DNA of 64,000 nucleotides, taken from Nitrospinales bacterium (GTDB lineage Bacteria; Nitrospinota; Nitrospinia; Nitrospinales; VA-1). Positions within the stretch are counted from its first letter, which is position 1. The number at the start of each line of letters is the position of its first letter. The stretch is from the NCBI GenBank assembly GCA_965205835.1, contig OZ242182.1, positions 1,852,226 through 1,916,225 of the forward strand, given 5' to 3'. Below are positions 5,971-41,196 of the stretch, in pieces. The position numbers and the translations under genes are program-made. The notes under the pieces were generated by a model. That model searched no databases, was not told the DNA's origin, and was given only the letters and a program-made list of their open reading frames with translations.

Positions 5971-6294
5971 TCATGTTTTTTCTCCAGACCATTCAAAGGT
6001 AATGCCACCATCAGGTTGAGGGACAATATGCGGAGAAGGGAAAAGGACAGGAAGATCGTCTAAAAATGTTTTCGCCTCAGAGTAAGAATCAATCGAAACC
6101 AGGGCAGCATCATAGCCATCCCAATTCGCTTGGGAACATTCACTGAAGGTTTTCTCAAGTTCACGTTCTAAATTTTCCCGCTCCCTTTCTTCGAGCTCAT
6201 GATAATCTAAAGAGAGATAATCCTCTTCCATTGCTCCAATTTCTGCCAAGCTTGGAAATTCTCTGCTTGGGACTAGTTGTAATGCAAGCGTCAC
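5971..6294 (-). CDS. Hypothetical acidic protein (NWDGY...PDGGITFEW motif); possibly the 5' part of a frameshifted longer gene
   Basis: 107-aa ORF, with a likely true start at the internal MEEDY (about 6231). A further 52-codon ORF (about 5815-5973) starts in an ATGA overlap right after an A6 run. Confidence 0.4.
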   Translation of the reverse strand: MTLALQLVPSREFPSLAEIGAMEEDYLSLDYHELEERERENLERELEKTFSECSQANWDGYDAALVSIDSYSEAKTFLDDLPVLFPSPHIVPQPDGGITFEWSGEKT

Positions 6295-6310
6295 ATTTCC
6301 TCCTTATTCA

Positions 6311-7123
6311 CTATTCATCCAAAGACACTTTAAGCTGATCGCTAATAGCCCAACTAAATAAATTATAAGTCTTCTTATTTACTTTTCGCCATTCAGAGAT
6401 AACATTTTCAACTTCAACATTAAATTGGTTTTCTGAAATAAGGTCAATATCAAGAATCACCTGCGGCTTGTCCATTTTTTTTACTGTGGGAGGCTCCGGT
6501 AATAATCCATAGCTAAAATTTAACCTATAACCATCTGCTTTTAAAGTAGCCTGAATAACTCCAGATTTCATAATGGCTGGATTGGGAAATGCCGTAAAGT
6601 TGCTAATCAGCTCTTTGTTGAAAGCAAAGTCGAGAAGTCGTGTTACACCAAAGTCAGTGGGAACAGAGGGTTCCAATATATTTATTTATATTTATTTTTC
6701 GGGCAGAAATCCAGCTTACATCGTCAATCCCACAAACCTCCAAAGCTGGTAAAAGAAGTTTCTCGATTTCACCTAGTGCATCCTCAAAACTCGTATATAC
6801 CCCACCAAATATGGTATAGGGAAATGCCCCTCCTGTGATTTTGAATATTTTTTTTCCATCTTCCGTCTTAAATTCAAAACCTTCACTTTCCCGCTGGCAG
6901 ACTCAAGTATGGGTGTCTTTGATGGTTCAAATCTTATTTTGGCTCCCACTCGTGTAACATCATTTTTTATTGGAAAATGAGGGCGCAAAAGAATCTCAAG
7001 ACGTTCGTGATTTTCCCTTATTGTTTTTGTTTCGGAGTATTTGAATTGAAATCTTACAGTACGCAGTAAATTTTTCTTGTGTTTAAACCCATCTTCCCTA
7101 GGTTGATCTGGGAAACCAAACAT
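6311..7123 (-). pseudogene. TIGR04255-like protein gene interrupted by two frameshifts
   Basis: Track ORFs 6773..7123 (N-terminal part, LRTVRFQFKY...) and 6311..6676 (C-terminal part) are bridged by a third-frame stretch. That stretch reads ...GFEFKTEDGKKIFKITGGAFPYTIFGG...DDVSWISARKININ (RYiN-like motif). The first shift sits at an A8 run near 6850. Confidence 0.45.
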
Positions 7124-7341
7124 TTTTCATAAACCTTTAAGAAGGCCTAAATTTATTGGGGTGGGGTAATAGCACTTTTGGCACTCGCCACGACAAATTA
7201 CTTACAAACAGGATAACAAGAACGACTCCTCCCTGCAAAAGCGGAACACCTCTCTGCTGGTAACCTGCAATGTCTTTATTTCACGGACAAACGTTTTCTC
7301 AGCCCAACAAGCCTGCCCATTAGCCTCACGCCAAGTGGGGA

Positions 7342-8823
7342 TTAAAACCTCAGGGCTTCCAGGTTGTTGAGTTTTGGAAAATCCGCCAAGAGGATAATAT
7401 CCGATTCCTTAAGTTTATTGCGGCGAAGATCCAGCTTTTTTAGCCGGGGTAACTTGCCAGAGTTTGCCCAAGAATCCAAGCCTTCCCGGGTGATGGTGTT
7501 GCCCATGGCTTCCAGCTCCTCAAGTTGGCTTAAAGTATCGGACTGAACCAGTGCCTGAAATCCAGAATCGCCCATAGGAATCCCCGAGGCTCTTAGTTTG
7601 ATGAGGCTTTTGAAGTTCACGGAATCCGCTAAAATACGCAGACCTTTTTCTCCCAGATTGTTGCCACTCACATTAAGCTCTTTCAATCGACCGAGATGTG
7701 GAGACCGCGAGAGGGCGAGGATTCCTAACGATGTGATCCCCGTATTTTCCAGATTCAAAACCTCCAATCGCGAAAGATTGGGAGATTCCGCCAGCAAGAG
7801 AAGACCTTTGTCCCCCACTGCATTGCTCATCAAGTTGAAGGATGTCAGGTTTTTGAGAAACTGGGAATTGGCAAGGTCCTGAACCCCATGGTAATCAAAA
7901 TGGTTGTTCCTCAGTGAAAGAGAAACAATCCCGCCCAGTTTTTCGTATTGCGCCAATGAAGCAATATCTTTGTTGTCCAATCTCTGCTCATTAAAGTTGA
8001 GTATATTTTCGACTCTTTTCTTCTCAACCAGAATCCGCGACCGCATGACCCTAAGAGCGGTCTCTCCAGCCCGACCATAATTATTATCCTGCATATAAAG
8101 CTGAACAAGATTATTCAAGTGCTTGGACCCGGCAATGCCCAAAGCTCCAGAGTCACCAATATGATTGGAATCGAGCACCAGAATTTCCAGACGGGTTAAC
8201 GTGGGAGAATGCGCAAGAGTGCGGGCACCCTGATTGGTGATTTGATTCCAGCCTAGGTTCAGTTGTACCAGTTTTTCAAAAGCACCAGCCTGCGCCCAGT
8301 CGGAAAGACTTTCATCGCCAACAAGATTGCGACGAAGGTTGAGAACACGAAGCTTGGAAACCACCGCACCGTCTGGAAATCGGGTCAATTTTCGCTGTCC
8401 CACCTTATTCATTTCCAAATCAATGAATCCAAGGTTCAACAGTGACTGCGACTTCACAAGGCTGAGAGCACCAAAATCAAAAATCTTATTGTTGGCCAAC
8501 TCTAGTGTTTCAAGGTTGGGAAGATTTTTTGAAAGCGCGAGACTCCGGGCTCCCTCCTCGCCAATCTGGTTGGCGTTGAGAACAAGATGCTTGAGCTCGG
8601 CCAGCGAATCCATGTCGGCAAGAACAGTCAGTCCTTCATCGGTGATTTCATTCCAGCTCAAATCCAGTTTTTGAACATGAGATAAATCTTTATTCCGGGA
8701 CAAAAAAACGATCCCCGCATCTCCCATTCGGTCATAGGAGAGATCCAGAACCGGGTCCTTGCGGGTCAATCTATCATTAAGAGTCTGGATAAAGTTCAGG
8801 TCTTTTATTTCATGCCGCATCAA
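7342..8823 (-). CDS. Leucine-rich-repeat protein, ribonuclease-inhibitor (RNI)-like 28-29-aa repeats (downstream part)
   Basis: 493 aa made of about 16 repeats of the pattern LxxLxLxxNxIGDxGAxxLAxSxxLxx. It is contiguous and in frame with ORF 8824..9516. Confidence 0.8.
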   Translation of the reverse strand: MMRHEIKDLNFIQTLNDRLTRKDPVLDLSYDRMGDAGIVFLSRNKDLSHVQKLDLSWNEITDEGLTVLADMDSLAELKHLVLNANQIGEEGARSLALSKNLPNLETLELANNKIFDFGALSLVKSQSLLNLGFIDLEMNKVGQRKLTRFPDGAVVSKLRVLNLRRNLVGDESLSDWAQAGAFEKLVQLNLGWNQITNQGARTLAHSPTLTRLEILVLDSNHIGDSGALGIAGSKHLNNLVQLYMQDNNYGRAGETALRVMRSRILVEKKRVENILNFNEQRLDNKDIASLAQYEKLGGIVSLSLRNNHFDYHGVQDLANSQFLKNLTSFNLMSNAVGDKGLLLLAESPNLSRLEVLNLENTGITSLGILALSRSPHLGRLKELNVSGNNLGEKGLRILADSVNFKSLIKLRASGIPMGDSGFQALVQSDTLSQLEELEAMGNTITREGLDSWANSGKLPRLKKLDLRRNKLKESDIILLADFPKLNNLEALRF

Positions 8824-9516
8824 TCAACCACCAATACGGGGGTAGTCCGTTTTCACTGCATTCATTTCCCGTAACCGTTTGGACTCATTCAAAAGTTCCA
8901 GTCCCTCGGGGTTGATCAGGTTATAAGACAGGTTTAAAGTCTGAAGGTTTTGCAATCCAGAGAGTTCAGCCAAAGCCTGCATTCCCCTGAGACCAATTCG
9001 GTTGGCATCAAGATGCAATTCCTTTAAATTTTTAAGATGGGTCGAGTTTGCCAGGGCTTCCGCTCCAACGTCTCCAATCCGATTAAACGAAAGATCAAGC
9101 TTTTCAAGTTTGGAAAGACTTTTAGAATTTGCCAAAGCCACGGCTCCTTCATCCTCGACTTTATTGGTATATAAACTAAGGTATCGCAACCGGGTCAATA
9201 CTTCAGACTCGGCCAAAGCCCTGGCTCCATCATCGCCGATCAGGTTTTCATACATCCATATCTCTTTAAGCGGCTCAAAAAATTCTGACCGGGCCAATTC
9301 CTCCACACCCAGGTCCTTGATTTTATTGGTATGAATATAAAGGATTTCAATATCAGGAAGTGCGACGTTTTCAGCCAGTTCCATGGCGGTCCCGTTATCG
9401 ATTCCTCTATTGGAAAAATCCAAGGTCTTCTTATCCTTACTCAAACCGCGCTTGACCCATTTTCTGATATAGGAAATATCTTCTGCCATGGCCAGGAACC
9501 AAATAAAAAGTTCCAT
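8824..9516 (-). CDS. Leucine-rich-repeat protein, RNI-like (upstream part, ends at an in-frame TGA)
   Basis: 230 aa with the same repeat type (NKIKDLGVEELARS, NLIGDDGARALAES, NKVEDEGAVALANS...). The stop at 8824-8826 is immediately followed, in the same frame, by the next LRR ORF. Confidence 0.8.
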   Translation of the reverse strand: MELFIWFLAMAEDISYIRKWVKRGLSKDKKTLDFSNRGIDNGTAMELAENVALPDIEILYIHTNKIKDLGVEELARSEFFEPLKEIWMYENLIGDDGARALAESEVLTRLRYLSLYTNKVEDEGAVALANSKSLSKLEKLDLSFNRIGDVGAEALANSTHLKNLKELHLDANRIGLRGMQALAELSGLQNLQTLNLSYNLINPEGLELLNESKRLREMNAVKTDYPRIGG

Positions 9517-9760
9517 TCTATAAAGGTGTGGGGGAAAGTAAAGAATTAAATGAGAAATCAGTGAAATTTCGTATTTTTCTGATTTTATCGGGCTGTATGA
9601 TCAAAGATTTCCCATGCTATACCAGAGAATTAAAACTCCCATCCCGTTAAAAAAAGCTTACCATGACCAAATTCGAGTAATGGTGGCTATAATGGGAAAA
9701 TTTGAGTGCTTTCAATGTAAATATCGAGGGAATTCAATAGGTAAAACCTACGGCTTTTAA

Positions 9761-11347
9761 ATGAAATTGCAAAATACCGTATTTTCTTTCTGGTTGCCGG
9801 TTATAATCTTTTCGTGGGTTCTCACCGGTTGCGGTCCGTCTGCCCCAACGGACGGGTCTGTTTTCCGCATGTCCATTAAAAACGAGCCTCCCACGCTTGA
9901 CTGGACCCTTGCGACAGACAGTGTTTCTTTCACGGTTCTCACCAACATCATGGAAGGACTCACCCAGTACGATTCGGAGCTAAATGCCCAACCCGCCATT
10001 GCCAAAAAATGGGAATACTCGAAGAACGGTCAAGTTATCACTTTTTTCCTGCGCAACGATGTTACCTGGAGTGACGGCAAGCCGGTCACCGCAGAGGACT
10101 TTGAGTATTCCTGGAAACGATTGTTGGCGCCGGAGACGGCGGCCCAGTATGCTTACTTCCTCTTCGACATCGAAAATGCCTCGCAATATAATTCAGGGGA
10201 AATTACAGACCCAAGTCAGGTCGGGGTCCGGGCACTGGCGCCGGATATTCTTGAAGTCCGCTTAAAAAAACCCGTGGTCTATCTTCCCAGCATCACCACG
10301 TTCATGGTTACGTTCCCGGCGCGAAAAGATATTGTCCTTAAACATGGAGACTCCTGGACAGAACCTGAAAACATTGTTACCAACGGCCCTTACATGCTTA
10401 AAGAGTGGCAACATGAATACAAAATAGTGTTGCAAGCCAACCCTCGCCACTACGAAGGCAAACCCGCTGTGGACGCCATCCGCATTTTTGTGGTGCAGGA
10501 GCCCACCACTGCCCTGACCCTTTACGAAACCGGAGAGCTGGACTATCTCGAACTGCCGCCAGTGGCGATTCCGCATTATAAATCCAGCCCCGAATACCGG
10601 AATAAATCTCAACTGCGAGGCTATTATTACGGTTTTAATGTGCAAAAGCCGCCCTTTGATGATGTGCTGGTCCGGCGGGCATTTGCTCATGCCATCGACC
10701 GGTCCCGCATTCCCAAATTTCTTAAAGGCGGGGAACTGCCTGCTTCATCATGGATTCCCAAAGGCATGTTCGGTTATAACGAAAACATAGGATCAAAGTT
10801 TGACCCTGAAAAAGCCGGAGCCCTGTTGGCTGAAGCGGGCTATCCCGACGGCAAAGGGTTTCCAAAAGTGACCGCGGTCTTCAACACCGGCGATCTCAAC
10901 CACTTCATTGCGGAATTCATTCAGGCACAATGGAAAAAACATCTGAATGTGCGGATTGAATTTGAAAGCCAGGAGTGGAAAGTTTTTCTCAGCCGGTTGG
11001 ATCTCGACCCACCGCAGATTTTTCGGCTGGGGTGGGGGGCTGATTTCCCTGACCCCGACAACTTCATGAACCTGTTCATTACAGCCAGCGGCAATAACCG
11101 GCTCAAATGGTCTAACCCTCGTTACGACGAGCTGATCGCCATGGGGTCCGCGTTGAAAAAACCGGAAGAACGGCAAGCAGTCTATGATGAAGCCCAAACC
11201 CTGCTCACCGAAAAAGAAGTCCCAATGATCCCGCTTTTTGTTTCGGCCCAGAACCTGCTGGTCAAGCCTTATGTGCAAGGGTTAAAGAACAACGCTATGG
11301 AACTTTTATATTTGAAACGAATTCGATTAGAAAAAGTCGCCAATTGA
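9761..11347 (+). CDS. ABC-transporter substrate-binding lipoprotein, family 5 (peptide/nickel, OppA/DppA-like)
   Basis: 528 aa with a lipobox (VLTGCG) and a family-5 SBP pattern throughout. No permease or ATPase genes are adjacent. Confidence 0.8.
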   Translation: MKLQNTVFSFWLPVIIFSWVLTGCGPSAPTDGSVFRMSIKNEPPTLDWTLATDSVSFTVLTNIMEGLTQYDSELNAQPAIAKKWEYSKNGQVITFFLRNDVTWSDGKPVTAEDFEYSWKRLLAPETAAQYAYFLFDIENASQYNSGEITDPSQVGVRALAPDILEVRLKKPVVYLPSITTFMVTFPARKDIVLKHGDSWTEPENIVTNGPYMLKEWQHEYKIVLQANPRHYEGKPAVDAIRIFVVQEPTTALTLYETGELDYLELPPVAIPHYKSSPEYRNKSQLRGYYYGFNVQKPPFDDVLVRRAFAHAIDRSRIPKFLKGGELPASSWIPKGMFGYNENIGSKFDPEKAGALLAEAGYPDGKGFPKVTAVFNTGDLNHFIAEFIQAQWKKHLNVRIEFESQEWKVFLSRLDLDPPQIFRLGWGADFPDPDNFMNLFITASGNNRLKWSNPRYDELIAMGSALKKPEERQAVYDEAQTLLTEKEVPMIPLFVSAQNLLVKPYVQGLKNNAMELLYLKRIRLEKVAN

Positions 11348-35889: not shown

Positions 35890-37017
35890 ATGAAGTGGTT
35901 CGCGGTGAAAACAATTTTTCTCCTGGCTCTTGCCCTATTTGTGAATTATTCCCTCAGCGATGGCACACCACGTAAAAAAACGGGACACCAAAAGATCATG
36001 ACCCCGTTCCCCCAAAACGCCACTATGCGTATTGCCATCGTCGGGGATACCGGAACCGGAGAGCGGGCCTACGCACCGGGATTCTCCGCCGTGCAAAAAG
36101 CCATGCGCGATACCAATCCGGACGCGTTACTGCATCTCGGCGATTTCGTTTACCAACCGGAACCGTTTCCCGACTCCTGCCCGGACCGATACATAGAAGA
36201 AATCAAAAAAACATTGGTCGCCCCCTACCCCCTGCGCCTTTTTGTTGCGGGCGATAACGATCTACTTGCCCATCGAAAAAAGCCGAAGGCTTCGGGTTGC
36301 TGGGATAAAATTGATCCGCTCGATTCCGGTTTTGACAAAACCGCTAAAAGTGCCGCGCGGGATTTTGAAGGCACACGGGTGGTGGGCAACGCATTGATCG
36401 GCGTCATCCATAATTATCCCTGGCAGGACCCTACCGAATGGCTGAAGCCACGCGTTAAAGAAGCGAGAGAAAAAGGGCTCTGGATCATCCTTGCCATCCA
36501 CGAGCCGGCACTCACCACCGCCTGGTATCTGGACAAACGCAACACGGTTCTCAAACAGTTGAATGCCTTAAAACCCGACCTGGTGTTCGCCGGCAACCAG
36601 CACTCGTACGAACGGTTTCATCCCATGATCTCGATAGAGGGCGGTGCATTCAAGGTGATCAAATCGGAACCCGGCAAATACCAAAGCGGGGATGGAACGA
36701 TGCACATAGTTTCAGGCGGCGGCGGGGCAACCTTCAAACCTTTTGCCGATACTCAGAATAAAAAGAAGGGCATCGCGCCAAAAGAGGTGTTCGACGCGCT
36801 GGCAAAAAGGGCATTGATGAATCATTTCGTCACGCTGGATATTTCGCGGGATGTTTTGAAAGGAACGGTCTGGCGGGTCTGCGTGAACGATGATCCCGAT
36901 GACCAACAAAACCCGCGCTGGAAATCGCGAAAGAAATTCTGGGACAACATCCCCCTGGAGTGCGACGACAAGCCTCAAGGCGTAACGGTTTATGAAGAGT
37001 TTGAAATTAATCATTAG
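35890..37017 (+). CDS. Secreted calcineurin-like metallophosphoesterase
   Basis: Signal peptide present, with motifs VGDTGTG, LHLGDFVY, GDND and GNQHSYER. Confidence 0.75.
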   Translation: MKWFAVKTIFLLALALFVNYSLSDGTPRKKTGHQKIMTPFPQNATMRIAIVGDTGTGERAYAPGFSAVQKAMRDTNPDALLHLGDFVYQPEPFPDSCPDRYIEEIKKTLVAPYPLRLFVAGDNDLLAHRKKPKASGCWDKIDPLDSGFDKTAKSAARDFEGTRVVGNALIGVIHNYPWQDPTEWLKPRVKEAREKGLWIILAIHEPALTTAWYLDKRNTVLKQLNALKPDLVFAGNQHSYERFHPMISIEGGAFKVIKSEPGKYQSGDGTMHIVSGGGGATFKPFADTQNKKKGIAPKEVFDALAKRALMNHFVTLDISRDVLKGTVWRVCVNDDPDDQQNPRWKSRKKFWDNIPLECDDKPQGVTVYEEFEINH

Positions 37018-37070: not shown

Positions 37071-37359
37071 TTGTTATATTTTTCCGTAGGGGGATGTCCT
37101 CCTCAAGAACCTTGCAAGCGACGGAGCATCTCGCCTGTCATCCGAGTTTGGTTTGCCGTGCTGAGCCTATCGAATAATCATGCCTCGAATGGGTAGAAGA
37201 ATTAGACCTCTTTATTTATTGATTTTTAGTAGAAAAATATTGAAGTTTAAGGAGTGCTATATTTATCTGAAAAAGCAATTTACTTAATGACTGCGACTCA
37301 AGTTTATAATACGATTACCTGTAAACTAGAGTTCTGAAAATGGAAACAAAGACAATTCA

Positions 37360-38625
37360 ATGATTAAAGTTAAGACAATTAAAAAAGAGCTTTTCGACTC
37401 AATTCCGATTGACCCTCTATGGAATATCGGTAAAGAAAAAGAGTTGAAAATGCATAGAATTCATTCATATCCTGCAAAGTTCCCGGCTTTTATAACAAAT
37501 AAAGCAATTGATTATGCAAGAGAAAATAAAATTAAATATAAGCGAATAGCTGACATATTTTGCGGGTGTGGGACGGTGGCATTTGAAGCAAAACGAAAAA
37601 ATATAGATTTTGTTGGTTATGATATTAATCCTGTTGCGACAATGATTGCAAAGGTAAAAAGCCGAAAATACAACAAAAATATTTTAGAAAATTATTATAA
37701 AAAAATTCAAAGTTATTATTTTAGTTTAGATAAAAGGACCAAAGCCCCTGAACTTAAAAATGAACGCTTAAAATACTGGTACAGCACAAAGCAACTAAAA
37801 CAACTTGCATTCTTGAAATGTTCTATTCAGAAAATCCTTCCTTTAAAAAGTATCTATCGTTTATTTTTTTTGTGCGCCTTTTCTAATATTTTAAAACCAA
37901 CTTCTCGCTGGCTCACGAAGTCAATAAAGCCACAAATTGACCCAGGAAAAATTCCTGCAGAGGTAATTCCGGCCTTTAGAGATCAATATCGTTTTATGTT
38001 TTCAGCTAATTCAGAAAGCGATGCCATTTGTAATTCAACGACAAAAATTAAAACTCTCAATTTTTTAGATGAAACAGAAAATCATCCAATTGTTGATACG
38101 ATCATAACAAGCCCTCCATATGTAACTTCTTATGAATATGCCGACCTTCATCAGCTTTCATCACTTTGGCTGGGTTTTGCCAGGGACTATAAGGATTTAA
38201 GAGAGGGGGCGATAGGGAGCCTTCATCACTGTTATGAATATGAAGCAGAACTTAAAAAATTAAATAAAACGGGCAAAAAAATTCATTCTGAATTATTAAA
38301 AAAAGATACTTCAAAGGCAAAATCTGTTGCTAAATATTTTTTAGATATGCAGTGTATTACTAAAAATTGCTTCAAGATGTTGTCAAGAAATGGAATGGCC
38401 CTTTTTGTTATTGGAAATACAGAATACAAAAGAGTACGTATAGATAATGTCCTCCATCTGGCCGAATCCTTAAGAGAAAGTGGCTTTAATGAGATTTTTG
38501 TTACCAAACGAAAAATCAGCAAAAAAATTTTAACACCATATAGAGATAAACGAGGTCGCTTTTCAACTGACGGGAGTGGCCGGAAAGTTTATAGCGAGGA
38601 ATTTATACTGATTGGAAGAAAATAA
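37360..38625 (+). CDS. DNA amino-methyltransferase (motif I ... long insert ... TSPPY; predicted m4C or m6A)
   Basis: 421 aa. Contains HSYPAKFP, motif I DIFCGCGTVAFEA with GYDINP, and motif IV IITSPPY about 185 aa downstream (alpha-like order). AT-rich. Confidence 0.8.
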   Translation: MIKVKTIKKELFDSIPIDPLWNIGKEKELKMHRIHSYPAKFPAFITNKAIDYARENKIKYKRIADIFCGCGTVAFEAKRKNIDFVGYDINPVATMIAKVKSRKYNKNILENYYKKIQSYYFSLDKRTKAPELKNERLKYWYSTKQLKQLAFLKCSIQKILPLKSIYRLFFLCAFSNILKPTSRWLTKSIKPQIDPGKIPAEVIPAFRDQYRFMFSANSESDAICNSTTKIKTLNFLDETENHPIVDTIITSPPYVTSYEYADLHQLSSLWLGFARDYKDLREGAIGSLHHCYEYEAELKKLNKTGKKIHSELLKKDTSKAKSVAKYFLDMQCITKNCFKMLSRNGMALFVIGNTEYKRVRIDNVLHLAESLRESGFNEIFVTKRKISKKILTPYRDKRGRFSTDGSGRKVYSEEFILIGRK

Positions 38626-38630
38626 TTGCT

Positions 38631-40478
38631 ATGTTCAATCTTACCGAGTTAAAAGAAGAAATAGTCCACAATAATCGTTTCGAGAGACGCATAGCAAAAC
38701 TAGTAGCTCAAGGGCAGGAGGTTGGCAGAATTAAGAATGTTGTCGCATCGGCTATTTATAAGATTAAGGATGGGGAAAGTTCTTTTGTTATTTACGGTGA
38801 GCCGCAAAGCGGAAAGACCGAGATGATGATTGCCTTAACAGCCCAGCTCTTAGATGAAGGTCATAAGATAATCATAGTTATGTTGAATGATAGCGTTCAG
38901 CTTCTAAGTCAAAATTTGGAAAGGTTTCAGAGGTCAGGATTGGACCCTTCCCCGAAAAAATCTAGTGAGGTGTTGCCAAGAACGATTAAAATTGGAGAAC
39001 AAAGCTGGGTCATTTTTTGTAAGAAGAATGCCAGAGACTTAGAAAAGCTAAATGACAAACTTTCTCCATTCAAAGGAAAGGTAATTATTGATGATGAAGC
39101 GGACTACGCCACTCCAAATTCTAAAATAAACAAAAAGGAGAAAAGCAGAATAAATGAGCTGACTGAAGAATTTATTGGCTTGAAGGGTATTTATATCGGT
39201 ATTACGGCTACTCCAGCGAGACTTGACTTAAATAGAACCCACAACAATAGCAGTGGAAACTGGATCGATTTCCCCCCACACTCCGACTACACTGGACAAG
39301 AAGTATTTTTTCCTTCATCTGCAGAAAAATTACCATTCTTCCTAACTTTACTGCCAGACCAAGGAGATGATCCTAAATATTTGAGAGGAGCATTATTTAG
39401 TTTTATGGTCAATGTAGCCTATTTGAACTCTGAAATTAATGACAATGAGGAAAATTATTCATTCCTAGTTCATACAAGTGGGAAAAAGGAGGGCCATACG
39501 GGTGATTACAAATTGACCGTTGAAACCTTTAAGATTTTGATGGATAAGGAAAACCCAAAGCATGAGAAATATTATAAGGAATTATGGGAAATAGCTCGCA
39601 AACGTTATCCAAACTTGGAGAATGGGCTAACTAAATACATTATATCAAACAATACCCGCAATAATATTGTTGTGATGAATAGCGATAAAGAAAAAAATAC
39701 GGCAGACAATAGGACGGCTACTGAACCTACCTCTCCATTTACCATTGCTATCGGAGGGAATATAGTTTCTAGGGGGGTAACTTTTAACCATCTTTTGTCC
39801 ATGTTTTTCACACGAGATGTGAAACATAACATACAACAGGATACCTACATCCAAAGGGCTAGAATGTTTGGAGCGCGGAATACATATTTAAAATATTTTG
39901 AACTCACTATTCCTGAAAGCTTGTATTCGAACTGGCAAAGATGTTTTATTTTTCATAGACTCTCTCTTGAATCACGAAGAGCGGGCAATGGAACACCCGT
40001 TTGGCTTGAGGGTAAAAAACTAATAGCTGCCGCACGCACAAGTATCGACAAAGCTAGTGTGGTAATAGACAGTGGTGAGATGAGTTTTGAAATTTTTGAT
40101 TTCAAGGCCAACGAGGTAGATGAAATACTAAACAAGCAAATCGGAAATTTGCAGAAGATCAATACCATATCAGAACTTCTAGGAGATGAGAAACTCCCTA
40201 AATATCTTATTAATTATATCGAAAACTATATGCCTTTAGGCGAGAAGTCCCTAGCACTCCACGCCTCGAAAAGTATTACGGAATATAAAGACGCTATCAC
40301 AGATCAAGAAGCAATTACTCGTACTAAGGGTTTTATAGGCCAGTTTGAACTTGAACCCAAAAAATATCCCGACGCAATTCACCACATTAGAATTCTCTAC
40401 AATGGCGCTAATAAAGCGAGAGTTTTCTATAAGTATAAAGGGAATATAAAATTTTTAAAAACTGCAAATAGAACGTGA
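38631..40478 (+). CDS. SF2-helicase-like P-loop NTPase with a C-terminal Z1 domain
   Basis: 615 aa with Walker A GEPQSGKT, Walker B IIDDEAD and motif III-like ITATPAR. Z1-like core is GGNIVSRGVTFNHLLSMFFTR...QQDTYIQRARMFGARN. 5-nt gap after the methyltransferase gene. Confidence 0.75.
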   Translation: MFNLTELKEEIVHNNRFERRIAKLVAQGQEVGRIKNVVASAIYKIKDGESSFVIYGEPQSGKTEMMIALTAQLLDEGHKIIIVMLNDSVQLLSQNLERFQRSGLDPSPKKSSEVLPRTIKIGEQSWVIFCKKNARDLEKLNDKLSPFKGKVIIDDEADYATPNSKINKKEKSRINELTEEFIGLKGIYIGITATPARLDLNRTHNNSSGNWIDFPPHSDYTGQEVFFPSSAEKLPFFLTLLPDQGDDPKYLRGALFSFMVNVAYLNSEINDNEENYSFLVHTSGKKEGHTGDYKLTVETFKILMDKENPKHEKYYKELWEIARKRYPNLENGLTKYIISNNTRNNIVVMNSDKEKNTADNRTATEPTSPFTIAIGGNIVSRGVTFNHLLSMFFTRDVKHNIQQDTYIQRARMFGARNTYLKYFELTIPESLYSNWQRCFIFHRLSLESRRAGNGTPVWLEGKKLIAAARTSIDKASVVIDSGEMSFEIFDFKANEVDEILNKQIGNLQKINTISELLGDEKLPKYLINYIENYMPLGEKSLALHASKSITEYKDAITDQEAITRTKGFIGQFELEPKKYPDAIHHIRILYNGANKARVFYKYKGNIKFLKTANRT

Positions 40479-40930
40479 TCAAAGAATTTGAATTCTACCA
40501 TGGTGCCGTTCTTGCGAGGCTCGCCCATGCGAATAAGTCGGTTTCCTTAAAGCTTTATACAACGGCTAGCAATTCTTCCTACGTTATTGATGATAAAATT
40601 GGGATATTCATGAAATATTCTTCCAAGCGAATGTCTCCTTGGGGCTTTAGTTTTCTCAAGAGTCATCAGGATGAAATATTAGAAATAAAGAAAGCGATTG
40701 GAGAAGTTTTTCTTTTGCTAGTGTGTCACGACGATGGAATCGTGGCATTAAACTTTGATAAGTTAAAAATTATTCTTGACGAAGTACACGATCAAGTTGA
40801 GTGGATTAGGGTTTCAAGAAGACCTCGAGAAAAATATTCTGTCAGTGGTTCTGATGGAAAATTAAAATTTAAAATTGGTGGGAATGAGTTTCCAAAAAAA
40901 ATATTTAATGCGTTGGGGTTGCAGGAATAA
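40475..40930 (+). CDS. 151-aa orphan protein, translationally coupled to the Z1 gene
   Basis: GTG start overlaps the Z1 stop (GTGA). Same AT-rich composition. No motif recognised with confidence. Confidence 0.6.
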   Translation: MIKEFEFYHGAVLARLAHANKSVSLKLYTTASNSSYVIDDKIGIFMKYSSKRMSPWGFSFLKSHQDEILEIKKAIGEVFLLLVCHDDGIVALNFDKLKIILDEVHDQVEWIRVSRRPREKYSVSGSDGKLKFKIGGNEFPKKIFNALGLQE

Positions 40931-40993
40931 GTCTAAAATAATTTCCAAAAAATAAGTCAGCTCCCCTCTCCCGGAAAAGGAGCCAGCTAGGAT

Positions 40994-41196
40994 ATGCCCT
41001 TCGGGGCATGATCCTTCGATGGACTCAGGATAATGGCGGCGGGCCAAGGTGACGATTTTGTTCCCCCTCATCTGGCCTCTCCCACGGAGGGAGAAGGAAT
41101 AACTGGGTTTACCCTCCGGGGCATGGATATGAATTGCCGCACCACTTTGTGGTTCGCAATGACGGCACCCCCCCCCTGGCCCCCTTCGTAAAGGGG
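40994..41196. repeat. Cluster of short GC-rich hairpins and repeat modules at the right edge of the AT-rich island
   Basis: Contains atgccc-ttcg-gggcat (40994-41009), gatccttcgatggactcaggataatgg, tctccc-acgga-gggaga (about 41078-41094), module cactttgtggttcgcaatgac (about 41142-41165) and cccctt-cgta-aagggg (41181-41196). Confidence 0.6.

Follow-up and report, generated by a model that had tools for sequence, protein, structure and literature searches.

DEAD-Z1 motors have been characterised so far only in CglI, NgoAVII and BceSIV, restriction systems in which three genes encode a stand-alone methyltransferase (MTase), a nuclease subunit and the motor (PMC4267653, PMC5861437); the nuclease powered by the motor is there a phospholipase D (PLD) protein of the PLD-B3 type. 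The H subunit of CglI, 632 amino acids (aa) long, is divided into a DEAD, a Z1 and a C-terminal domain, and Z1 is the second RecA-like core of a superfamily 2 (SF2) translocase moving on double-stranded DNA (PMC5861437). DEAD-Z1 proteins are marked by a Walker A motif with Gln in place of Gly, by the sequence DDEAD, by an H/H motif (H282/H290 in CglI), by motif V (R379) and by a short QxxR motif VI (Q405/R408), and mutations in the H/H motif and in motifs V and VI of H.CglI abolished both ATPase activity and cleavage (PMC5861437). The sequences recognised by the CglI family, GCCGC and GCWGC, are nearly constant across phyla (PMC4267653, PMC5861437). Here we describe a cassette of three open reading frames (ORFs) found in a 64,000-nucleotide stretch, referred to as the window, of contig OZ242182.1 of a Nitrospinales bacterium. 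ORF1, ORF2 and ORF3, abbreviated as M, H and S (Table 1), encode an amino-methyltransferase, a predicted DEAD-Z1 motor and a very small partner with a putative nuclease fold. The same motor thus recurs in a much larger family than those described, and the cassette is plausibly an ATP-dependent, DEAD-Z1-driven restriction-modification (RM) system of a widespread, uncharacterised family related to CglI/NgoAVII.

According to the interpretation that we favour, and in which we have good confidence, the cassette is a defence system of the RM type, in which H and S together (H+S) would be the restriction effector and M would protect self DNA. The identity of the motor, the fold predicted for its partner, the operon arrangement, a distribution which is patchy and horizontal, and the precedent of CglI all support this notion. 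The original prediction, made from the letters of the window, had described an operon-like, RM-like module in which an SF2/Z1 NTPase is combined with a methyltransferase and with a small, coupled protein, and to this extent is supported.

Table 1. Coordinates of the cassette, of the domains of ORF2 and of the surrounding features in the window
Feature	Position	Strand	Remarks
ORF1 (M)	37360-38625	+	421 aa
ORF2 (H)	38631-40478	+	615 aa
ORF2 N-core (DEAD) RecA domain	38739-39221 (aa 37-197)	+	ResIII match, invariant columns
ORF2 Z1 domain (C-core RecA)	39381-39941 (aa 251-437)	+	Pfam Z1
ORF2 C-terminal domain	40065-40448 (~aa 479-606)	+	AlphaFold2 pLDDT 82-95 over most
ORF3 (S)	40475-40930	+	151 aa
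AT-rich island with whole cassette	~37190-40955	no strand	GC 0.352 vs 0.481 in remaining window
GC-rich hairpin and T-run, right island edge	40958-40985	no strand	terminator-like, 11-pair stem

The motor, its small partner and the methylase

The three ORFs lie on the same strand, and their junctions are exactly those first reported: 5 nucleotides (nt) separate ORF1 from ORF2 (TAA-TTGCT-ATG), and a 4-nt GTGA sequence is shared by the stop of ORF2 and the start of ORF3. They are not chance ORFs, since the longest stop-free run at the locus reaches 627 codons, whereas none of 200 shuffles gave a run of more than 156, and each of the three proteins has hundreds to thousands of homologs. NCBIfam has no equivalog for any of them, and nothing useful emerged from single-sequence searches of the PDB.

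ORF2 matches the Pfam Z1 family (PF10593; 76.6 bits against a cutoff of 25, E = 2.8e-21) and ResIII (38.2 bits, 1.7e-9), in agreement with the SF2/Z1 assignment made at the outset, as well as Helicase_II (“Type II helicase domain protein”), a REBASE-derived model of PADLOC (5.5e-44). The motifs formerly quoted for ORF1 and ORF2 are all present. The N-core carries the Walker A motif GEPQSGKT (aa 56-63), in which an invariant Q59 stands in place of G, IIDDEAD (aa 152-158), with the Walker B DDEAD at aa 154-158, and ITATPAR (aa 191-197), which includes motif III (TATPAR); in a 32-member alignment the columns G56-T63, D154-D158 and T192-P195 are invariant. In the Z1 domain, located after the Walker N-core, SRGVTF is found at aa 380-385 and DTYIQRARMFGAR at aa 404-416. 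H281/H289 of the H/H motif, R381 of motif V and Q408/R411 of the short QxxR motif VI, the counterparts of H282/H290, R379 and Q405/R408 of H.CglI, are invariant in 32 members of the family. Because the Gln-type Walker A, DDEAD, the H/H motif, motif V and the short motif VI are all present and invariant, ORF2 is considered a genuine DEAD-Z1 motor of the usual length. Two statements of the original prediction have consequently to be revised. Z1 had been regarded as a domain without a demonstrated function, and is in fact the C-core RecA domain of the CglI translocase (PMC5861437); ORF2 had been considered short for a Z1 protein at 615 aa, but is close in size to H.CglI, and the 120 top-scoring members of its family, which range from 591 to 738 aa, nearly all measure 611-629 aa. 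ORF2 homologs found at E <= 1e-3 exceed 2,900.

The C-terminal domain of ORF2 is modelled with confidence over most of its length (Table 1), but nothing significant was retrieved when the model was compared with the PDB by Foldseek (best E 0.1, probability 0.16). The alignment of ORF2 to Helicase_II ends at aa 504 (position 497 of the 621 of the model). The profile of the ORF2 family did not retrieve from the PDB any C-terminal chain of the H.CglI type, the crystal structure of which is expected to be among the PDB entries, although its presence in the searched libraries is unconfirmed. This region is a candidate DNA-binding or partner-binding domain. Matches to the THUMP-domain-containing proteins Trm14 and ThiI were dropped, as the Foldseek probability was at most 0.16. 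A weak resemblance of the family profile to the helix-turn-helix, DNA-binding domain IV of DnaA at aa 490-568 (40101-40334) was also noticed (7e-4 for the whole sequence, about 0.2 per domain); it might point to a DNA-binding role of this region, and is not relied on.

ORF3, at first sight a 151-aa orphan, belongs to a large family. An exhaustive profile search collected 889 clusters at 50% identity. With a word-indexed search, 351 homologs were obtained at a threshold of E <= 1e-3, and identity to ORF3 is 55-81% for the top 120; phrog_28860, a phage protein family with no assigned function, matches ORF3 at 1.4e-16. In turn, no Pfam or NCBIfam family was matched, nor any PADLOC model at E <= 1. 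The 150 best clusters are free-standing proteins of about 85-215 aa, with a single exception of 313 aa. The 313-aa member P0280 features a Cys-rich C-terminal extension, and in the Pacearchaeota genome the S-family ORF (L004, 4113-5198) has been called at 361 aa, about twice the usual length; a C-terminal fusion, a missed stop or a frameshift could account for the latter.

The AlphaFold2 model of ORF3, obtained from a 40-sequence alignment (predicted local distance difference test, pLDDT, 85; predicted template modelling score, pTM, 0.82), shows a helix, four beta strands, a second helix, two strands and a helix, followed by a beta-meander, and thus includes the alpha-beta-beta-beta-alpha-beta core of PD-(D/E)xK proteins. 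The best Foldseek matches in the PDB are all PD-(D/E)xK proteins, namely archaeal Hjc (E 3.6e-3, probability 1.0, template modelling score 0.49/0.57), RecU/PrfA, the tRNA-splicing endonuclease EndA and Cas4, and RecU/Hjc-like proteins were retrieved from the viral library. On the basis of scores which are modest, yet consistent, we accept for ORF3 a predicted PD-(D/E)xK fold of the Hjc/RecU type. The view that none of the three proteins contains a nuclease domain must therefore be amended, though the canonical catalytic acids are missing. K47, W56 and G125 are invariant down to relatives 24-30% identical, G10, D87, G88, R115 and Y121 nearly so, and the strongly conserved polar residues are E4, E6, H9, Y36, K47, R52, H64, Q65, E67 and D87.

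Conservation within the family peaks in the first ten residues of ORF3 (MIKEFEFYHG), and for this reason the true start codon is taken to be the GTG at 40475, in overlap with the stop of ORF2, and the deposited gene model is judged to be truncated. In the public annotation ORF3 is a 106-aa protein, P0004, which starts from an internal Met and covers 70% of the query at 100% identity.

As Holliday-junction resolvases are the best structural matches of ORF3, and helicases and resolvases are commonly paired in recombination, the cassette could in principle be a repair or recombination module, made of a branch-migrating helicase and a Hjc/RecU-like resolvase, with the methylase marking strands or origins. 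This is highly improbable. The residues used by resolvases for catalysis are absent from ORF3, the cassette has a foreign composition and a patchy, highly horizontal spread over unrelated phyla, one copy is disrupted by an insertion sequence (IS), others reside in plasmids and defence islands (see below), and DEAD-Z1 motors have been characterised so far only in restriction enzymes (PMC5861437).

The assignment of ORF1 to the amino-methyltransferases was confirmed by the match to Pfam N6_N4_Mtase (46.3 bits against a cutoff of 26.7, E = 6.5e-12), and the REBASE-derived PADLOC model MTase_II covers the full length of the protein (4.5e-40). The S-adenosylmethionine (AdoMet) motif I, DIFCGCGTVAFEA (aa 65-77), and GYDINP (aa 86-91) are N-terminal to the catalytic TSPPY (aa 250-254), so that motif I, a motif IV of the (S/D/N)PP(Y/F) type and a score above the Pfam threshold, as expected of the amino (N4-cytosine/N6-adenine) DNA methyltransferases, are found together. 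Exactly one SPPY is present in each of the 56 full-length (>380 aa) ORF1-like MTases analysed, ORF1 included. From the motif, N4-cytosine seems the more likely target, N6-adenine a possible one. Blocks at about aa 100-160, 200-240 and 280-320 are variable in the manner of a target recognition domain (TRD): identity among MTases drops there to 0.2-0.39, against 0.6-0.8 in the catalytic blocks.

Distribution and variants of the cassette

Neighbourhoods were compared by keeping one genome per species, which gave 80 loci, and by clustering all neighbouring ORFs. The loci are found in Patescibacteria (Candidate Phyla Radiation, CPR), Nitrospirota, Planctomycetota, Bacteroidota, Verrucomicrobiota, Acidobacteriota, Chloroflexota, Actinomycetota, Omnitrophota and Thermodesulfobacteriota, in Gamma- and Alphaproteobacteria (Pelagibacter, Bradyrhizobium and Legionella among them), and in one metagenome-assembled genome (MAG) of Pacearchaeota. 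Cultured carriers include Hufsiella ginkgonis HMF7056, Flavobacterium silvaticum SE-s28, Chryseobacterium taihuense CGMCC 1.10941 and Bradyrhizobium spp. H recurs in 76 loci, S in 77, and the ORF1-like M in 62; the next family is found in 7, and no fourth recurrent gene family could be identified in this set. The co-conservation of ORF2 and ORF3 homologues with a methyltransferase, set as a condition by the original prediction, holds in most genomes.

H is located directly upstream of S, and in nearly all loci the end of H runs 4-17 nt into the start of S; in about 70 of the 80 genomes the two genes adjoin and overlap, and they form an obligate pair. Their divergence is tightly correlated (Spearman rho 0.70), while the correlation of M with H and S is weak (0.23 and 0.33). 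H is the most conserved of the three, with a mean pairwise identity of 0.62, against 0.49 for S and 0.35 for M. Three deep groups of M proteins, found in 23, 20 and 8 loci, are 22-25% identical overall and share one type of H+S; ORF1 belongs to the smallest. The single-SPPY M lies within about 8 kb, and mostly directly upstream, but is downstream in about 12 loci, on the opposite strand in a few, and 2.5-7 kb away in seven Bacteroidota loci. In the nearest relative, locus L093, which hosts the MTase P0392, the layout is exactly the same, with M, a gap of 5 nt, H and an overlapping S.

Several loci depart from this scheme. In seven Bacteroidota (L013, L014, L028, L031, L035, L037 and L057) the space between M and H+S is occupied by one GHKL/HATPase_c_3 protein or by two (816 and 739 aa), accompanied in four of them by an unknown protein of about 455 aa. 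In four Pelagibacteraceae (L054-L056 and L068), which have streamlined genomes, H is on the strand opposite to S, a C5 cytosine methylase replaces the SPPY methylase, and the flanks encode an HNH endonuclease and a 203-aa unknown protein besides the C5 enzyme. A beta-class N6_N4 MTase accompanies H+S in Nitrosospira. The original prediction had set the cassette apart from the contexts, rich in HATPases and C5 methylases, in which Z1 proteins usually reside; this distinction does not hold for the family, as H+S is found with GHKL ATPases and C5 methylases in other genomes. In an alphaproteobacterial MAG and in two Dehalococcoidia the pair is flanked by housekeeping genes, without a methylase. 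In Legionella saoudiensis (L046, 7740-8600) H is split by an IS with an rve-family integrase and S is intact, which is consistent with the loss of a costly or toxic defence gene.

More distant forms are found on mobile DNA. The order of the genes is reversed on two mobilizable cyanobacterial plasmids, Nostoc p057_D (L081, 7001-9677) and Calothrix plasmid5 (L084, 7001-9698), where the gene for an S protein 30% identical to ORF3 immediately precedes that for a 734-741-aa Z1 protein; TIR/NACHT genes are in the vicinity and no methylase is nearby. The Nostoc Z1 protein shares with ORF2 only the DEAD-Z1 part (28% identity, aa 30-464) and, unlike ORF2, matches Helicase_II from end to end (1e-89). 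Relatives of S assigned to phrog_28860 occur in the Burkholderia phage vB_SBP9 (L082, 208-648) and in prophage-like records of Ralstonia (L083, 7995-9225). No Z1 gene is present beside these phage and prophage relatives within the flanks retrieved, and in Ralstonia a 262-aa protein which matches nothing follows 4 nt after the S relative. S may thus have partners other than DEAD-Z1 proteins, or a stand-alone role. Among 2.9 million viral contigs a single close relative of the cassette was found, which carries H+S without M; the cassette is accordingly not typically phage-borne.

These data bear on the hypothesis that H+S works independently of any methylase, as a modification-dependent (Type IV-like) or abortive-infection system, the MTase belonging to another system or being just a neighbour in the island. 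Pairs devoid of MTase on cyanobacterial plasmids, in the alphaproteobacterial MAG, in Dehalococcoidia and in the viral contig are in keeping with it, as are the S relatives found alone in phages and prophages, and the association of ORF1-type MTases with a different effector elsewhere, described in the next paragraph. All MTase-less cases, however, fall in a distant clade, in which H is at most about 45% identical to ORF2, and 62 of 77 loci have an SPPY MTase, always from one family, at a distance of no more than about 8 kb, mostly adjacent and a few nt away, as with the 5 nt of the window and of L093; this goes far beyond the clustering expected from residence in the same island. We regard this hypothesis as very unlikely.

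MTases 60-76% identical to ORF1 are numerous, and the neighbourhoods of eight were analysed. P0392, 75% identical to ORF1, is linked to H+S; the remaining seven (62-76%) are linked to a GHKL ATPase. In the latter loci (L086-L092, each at about 6001-10800) M is immediately followed by a gene encoding a HATPase_c_3 protein of 741-821 aa, and in five of the seven a protein of about 400-416 aa lacking Pfam domains is also encoded. They come from Methanolobus mangrovi, from an assembly associated with Methanococcoides, from MAGs of Selenomonadales and Dissulfurispiraceae, and from further assemblies and metagenomic contigs, and four of the seven reside in defence islands with Type I RM genes or an integrase. 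PADLOC reported weak REase_II matches at the N-terminus of the HATPase_c_3 proteins. The SPPY methylase, the GHKL ATPase and, where present, the 400-416-aa protein look like another uncharacterised methylation-linked effector cassette. The GHKL-linked P0393 is as similar to ORF1 as the H+S-linked P0392, both in the catalytic (0.88 vs 0.82) and in the variable blocks (0.64 vs 0.61). It follows that one type of methylase serves at least two unrelated effector modules, sometimes both together.

In the window, the island hosting the cassette is more AT-rich than its surroundings, as already remarked in the original prediction (Table 1), and the GC content at third codon positions (GC3) of ORF1-3 is 0.26-0.36, against 0.55-0.60 for the flanking genes. 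The cassette was acquired horizontally. Direct repeats, tRNA genes and integrases were searched around the island, and none was found; Rfam elements are similarly missing nearby. Overall, the context is defence-like, as indicated by the foreign composition, the patchy distribution, the IS-disrupted H, and the plasmid copies close to TIR/NACHT genes. The left neighbour of the island is a 375-aa ORF (35890-37017). The hairpin at the right edge probably terminates the convergent malate dehydrogenase-like gene (mdh), and possibly serves the cassette as well; promoter and terminator scans gave scores not above those of shuffled sequences. The spacer which separates the island from the malate dehydrogenase-like gene is GC-rich, and a 21-nt element is found in it twice, 115 nt apart, at 40990-41010 (GGATATGCCCTTCGGGGCATG) and 41105-41125 (GGGTTTACCCTCCGGGGCATG). 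Both copies contain a GC-rich hairpin with a TTCG/TCCG loop, and may be REP-like or terminator elements.

Target recognition and cleavage

In the model proposed ORF1 would mark the host DNA. ORF2, a putative double-stranded DNA translocase homologous to the H subunit of CglI, would work with ORF3, a small, translationally coupled partner which would take the place of the PLD-B3 R subunit of CglI. The H+S complex (H2S2 by analogy) would engage unmethylated DNA, ATP hydrolysis by the DEAD-Z1 motor would drive translocation, and cleavage would take place upon collision or stalling of the motor; methylation by ORF1 would prevent the engagement of H+S. We infer complex formation, translocation, cleavage by ORF3, self-protection by methylation and an anti-phage or anti-plasmid function from the evidence set out above.

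How the target may be recognised is a separate issue. In a CglI-like version of the model H+S would find its target without the help of M, which would be a separate methylase of the Type II-like kind. The position and strand of M vary, H+S is also found with C5 methylases, with a beta-class MTase or with no methylase at all, and CglI behaves in this way; for these reasons we give this version a little less than an even chance. The recognition sequence of the CglI family is nearly constant, which makes a conserved effector with a fixed specificity plausible. If the SPPY motif denotes an N4-cytosine enzyme, a target containing cytosine could be blocked by either N4 or C5 modification.

A number of observations weigh against the interpretation of the cassette as an RM system of this kind. 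Hypervariable blocks of the size of a TRD are present in the MTase, but not in H or S. MTases 75-76% identical to ORF1 are paired with either an H+S or a GHKL effector, and a shared MTase is awkward if every effector needs a matching specificity of its own. H+S pairs without a nearby MTase exist. As to cleavage, the Foldseek scores of ORF3 are modest (E about 4e-3, root-mean-square deviation 4-9 A), and neither a nuclease motif nor a nuclease fold was found in the C-terminal domain of ORF2 by Foldseek. The catalytic D...(D/E)xK motif is not conserved in ORF3, K47 being its sole residue maintained family-wide; judging from the register of the secondary structure, the expected D would correspond to S35/N33, and the first position of (D/E)xK to F/Y45.

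The first of these observations is accommodated by a different mode of targeting, similar to that of Type III or Type I enzymes, in which ORF1 reads the sequence and loads H+S, a sort of split Res lacking specificity of its own, at unmethylated sites; ORF1-type MTases would alternatively load the GHKL-ATPase effector. The TRD-like hypervariable blocks are confined to the MTase, H and S are conserved far above M (0.62 and 0.49 vs 0.35), and the seven close ORF1 relatives linked to HATPase_c_3 proteins and the H+S-linked P0392 are equally similar to ORF1 in the variable blocks. The order of the genes, with the MTase followed by the helicase and the nuclease, parallels that of mod-res operons. 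M and S co-vary beyond the phylogeny of H (partial rho 0.17-0.30, permutation p 0.002), but the signal is weak and not specific to the variable patches; co-variation of the MTase variable blocks with H or S patches fits both targeting models, and was discarded as a discriminator. The combination of a conserved effector with a variable MTase is the logic also applied by the authors who described MANTIS (bioRxiv 10.64898/2026.09.23.753747). On the other side, the place and orientation of the MTase are not fixed, as the gene may follow H+S, lie on the other strand or be separated from them by 2.5-7 kb, and the occurrence of H+S with a C5 methylase, a beta-class N6_N4 MTase or no MTase poorly fits dedicated docking. 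A conserved docking surface is not evident either, given that the M groups are 22-25% identical, and the MTase of CglI, the closest characterised relative, acts independently (PMC4267653). All in all, targeting directed by the MTase seems to us somewhat unlikely.

In a broader version of this idea, ORF1-type enzymes would be hubs, which mark self DNA, read the target, and hand unmethylated sites over to interchangeable, ATP-driven effectors devoid of specificity, either H+S or GHKL proteins, both of which are present in some genomes. We consider this idea rather unlikely, and slightly more so than loading of H+S by the MTase. Its implications are sizeable, since a plug-and-play restriction distinct from Types I-IV would operate from CPR bacteria and DPANN archaea to Pelagibacter, and would involve either a new nuclease chemistry or a non-nucleolytic effector. 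The exchange of MTases between H+S and GHKL modules is a tractable natural experiment on a question of current interest, namely whether specificity in ATP-dependent, methylation-based defences comes from the effector or from the methylase.

The lack of catalytic acids in ORF3 can be read in two ways. Nuclease activity may depend on a migrated active site, for which E6, D87 and K47 are candidates. Alternatively, ORF3 may be a non-catalytic subunit which engages DNA. According to the latter view, H+S would not cut: ORF3 would be an inactive nuclease-fold protein binding DNA or sensing its structure, like the XPF-like or EndA structural subunits, and the motor would block replication or displace proteins on unmethylated DNA, in a BREX-like manner, or recruit a host nuclease. 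The lysine is the only residue of the PD-(D/E)xK motif to be conserved, and the ORF3 profile has a sole match in the PDB, which is not significant, to the XPF-like domain of Zip2 (E 0.54), itself inactive. A nuclease was not found in the C-terminal domain of ORF2, and no further conserved gene among the 80 loci could supply one. Migration of the active site is, however, common among PD-(D/E)xK families. Moreover, the conserved polar residues of ORF3 appear to cluster on elements of the active-site face, as placed by the secondary-structure register, and all the DEAD-Z1 systems characterised cleave DNA (PMC4267653). A non-cutting H+S is in our opinion improbable, and cleavage by ORF3, in the frame of the RM interpretation, is preferred.

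Relation to known systems

No published description of an MTase associated with a DEAD-Z1 motor and a small PD-(D/E)xK-fold protein was found in a literature search, although an earlier annotation by computation alone, in REBASE or DefenseFinder, may exist. In agreement with the expectation that the three genes together do not correspond to an already named system, none was matched in full in PADLOC-DB v2: ORF1 and ORF2 match the generic MTase_II and Helicase_II models, ORF3 none. Since ORF3 matches no model, the cassette would probably not be called by PADLOC, and censuses of defence systems would under-count cassettes of this type. The contention that the architecture cannot be named is too strict, however, as CglI, NgoAVII and BceSIV are named combinations of M, a nuclease and a DEAD-Z1 protein (PMC4267653), and ORF2 is recognised by Helicase_II.

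The similarity of ORF3 to Hjc, RecU, EndA and Cas4 includes size, the order of the elements (alpha, four beta, alpha, beta, beta) and the lysine of the motif. ORF3 differs in that sequence identity is only 7-13%, the acids of the E...D...ExK motif are not conserved, an additional C-terminal beta-meander hosts the conserved R115, Y121 and G125, and the genetic link is with a DEAD-Z1 motor, not with genes for recombination.

Type III RM systems (Mod and Res, as in EcoP15I) have in common with the cassette the order of methylase, SF2 motor and PD-(D/E)xK-fold element, and the association of a conserved motor/nuclease module with a variable, TRD-bearing methylase; H+S, 766 aa in all, resembles a split Res. 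Yet, the C-core of the cassette motor is Z1 and not Helicase_C, the nuclease-fold element is separate and lacks the canonical acids, and the MTase is exchangeable, its place and strand differing among loci. Most Type III Mods are enzymes of the beta class with a DPPY motif, whereas motif I precedes SPPY in ORF1, in an alpha-like order. Identity with Type III RM was rejected, because the C-core is of the Z1 type and because in every locus one gene encodes the motor and another the nuclease-fold element, in contrast to the single polypeptide of Res.

Z1 helicases are found in methylase-linked defence loci of the MZA and of the Dcm-adjacent Z1-HATPase-AIPR type, and H+S resides beside HATPase_c_3 proteins in the seven Bacteroidota mentioned above. 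The cassette of the window, in contrast, contains neither a GHKL ATPase nor AIPR, and ORF3 has no counterpart in PADLOC. ORF2 scores 28.3 bits with the MzaC equivalog, the cutoff of which is 1500, and the PADLOC MzaC model matches at 1.4e-7 over about 60 residues; MZA was thus discarded.

MANTIS (Gao_RL) is composed of MtsA, an AAA+ protein of the ORC/Cdc6-like type, a DUF3870 protein, an N6-adenine MTase and a SauUSI-like PLD effector (bioRxiv 10.64898/2026.09.23.753747). Its components differ from those of the cassette, and none is homologous to H or S, so that identity with MANTIS/Gao_RL was also rejected. What the cassette may share with MANTIS and BREX-related systems is the logic, namely a conserved ATP-dependent effector, with targeting perhaps provided by a variable methyltransferase.

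The comparison with CglI, NgoAVII and BceSIV is the closest. The cassette is not a member of the family proper, because the gene encoding the PLD-B3 R subunit is absent from it and from the 80 related loci, the methylase is not a C5 enzyme, and the C-terminal domain of H is different. In place of a 358-aa PLD nuclease with a B3-like domain, there is a 151-aa protein with a predicted PD-(D/E)xK fold; ORF1 is an SPPY amino-MTase, whereas the methylase of CglI is a C5 cytosine MTase, a type of enzyme found, among the 80 loci, only with the distant Pelagibacter variant; and the C-terminal domain of ORF2 resembles no PDB entry detectably, by either sequence or fold. The framework is nonetheless the same. 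In both cases three genes encode a stand-alone MTase, a nuclease-type subunit and a DEAD-Z1 subunit of about 620 aa, the motifs of ORF2 occupy nearly identical positions to those of H.CglI, and the domains (DEAD, Z1, C-terminal) follow each other in the same order.

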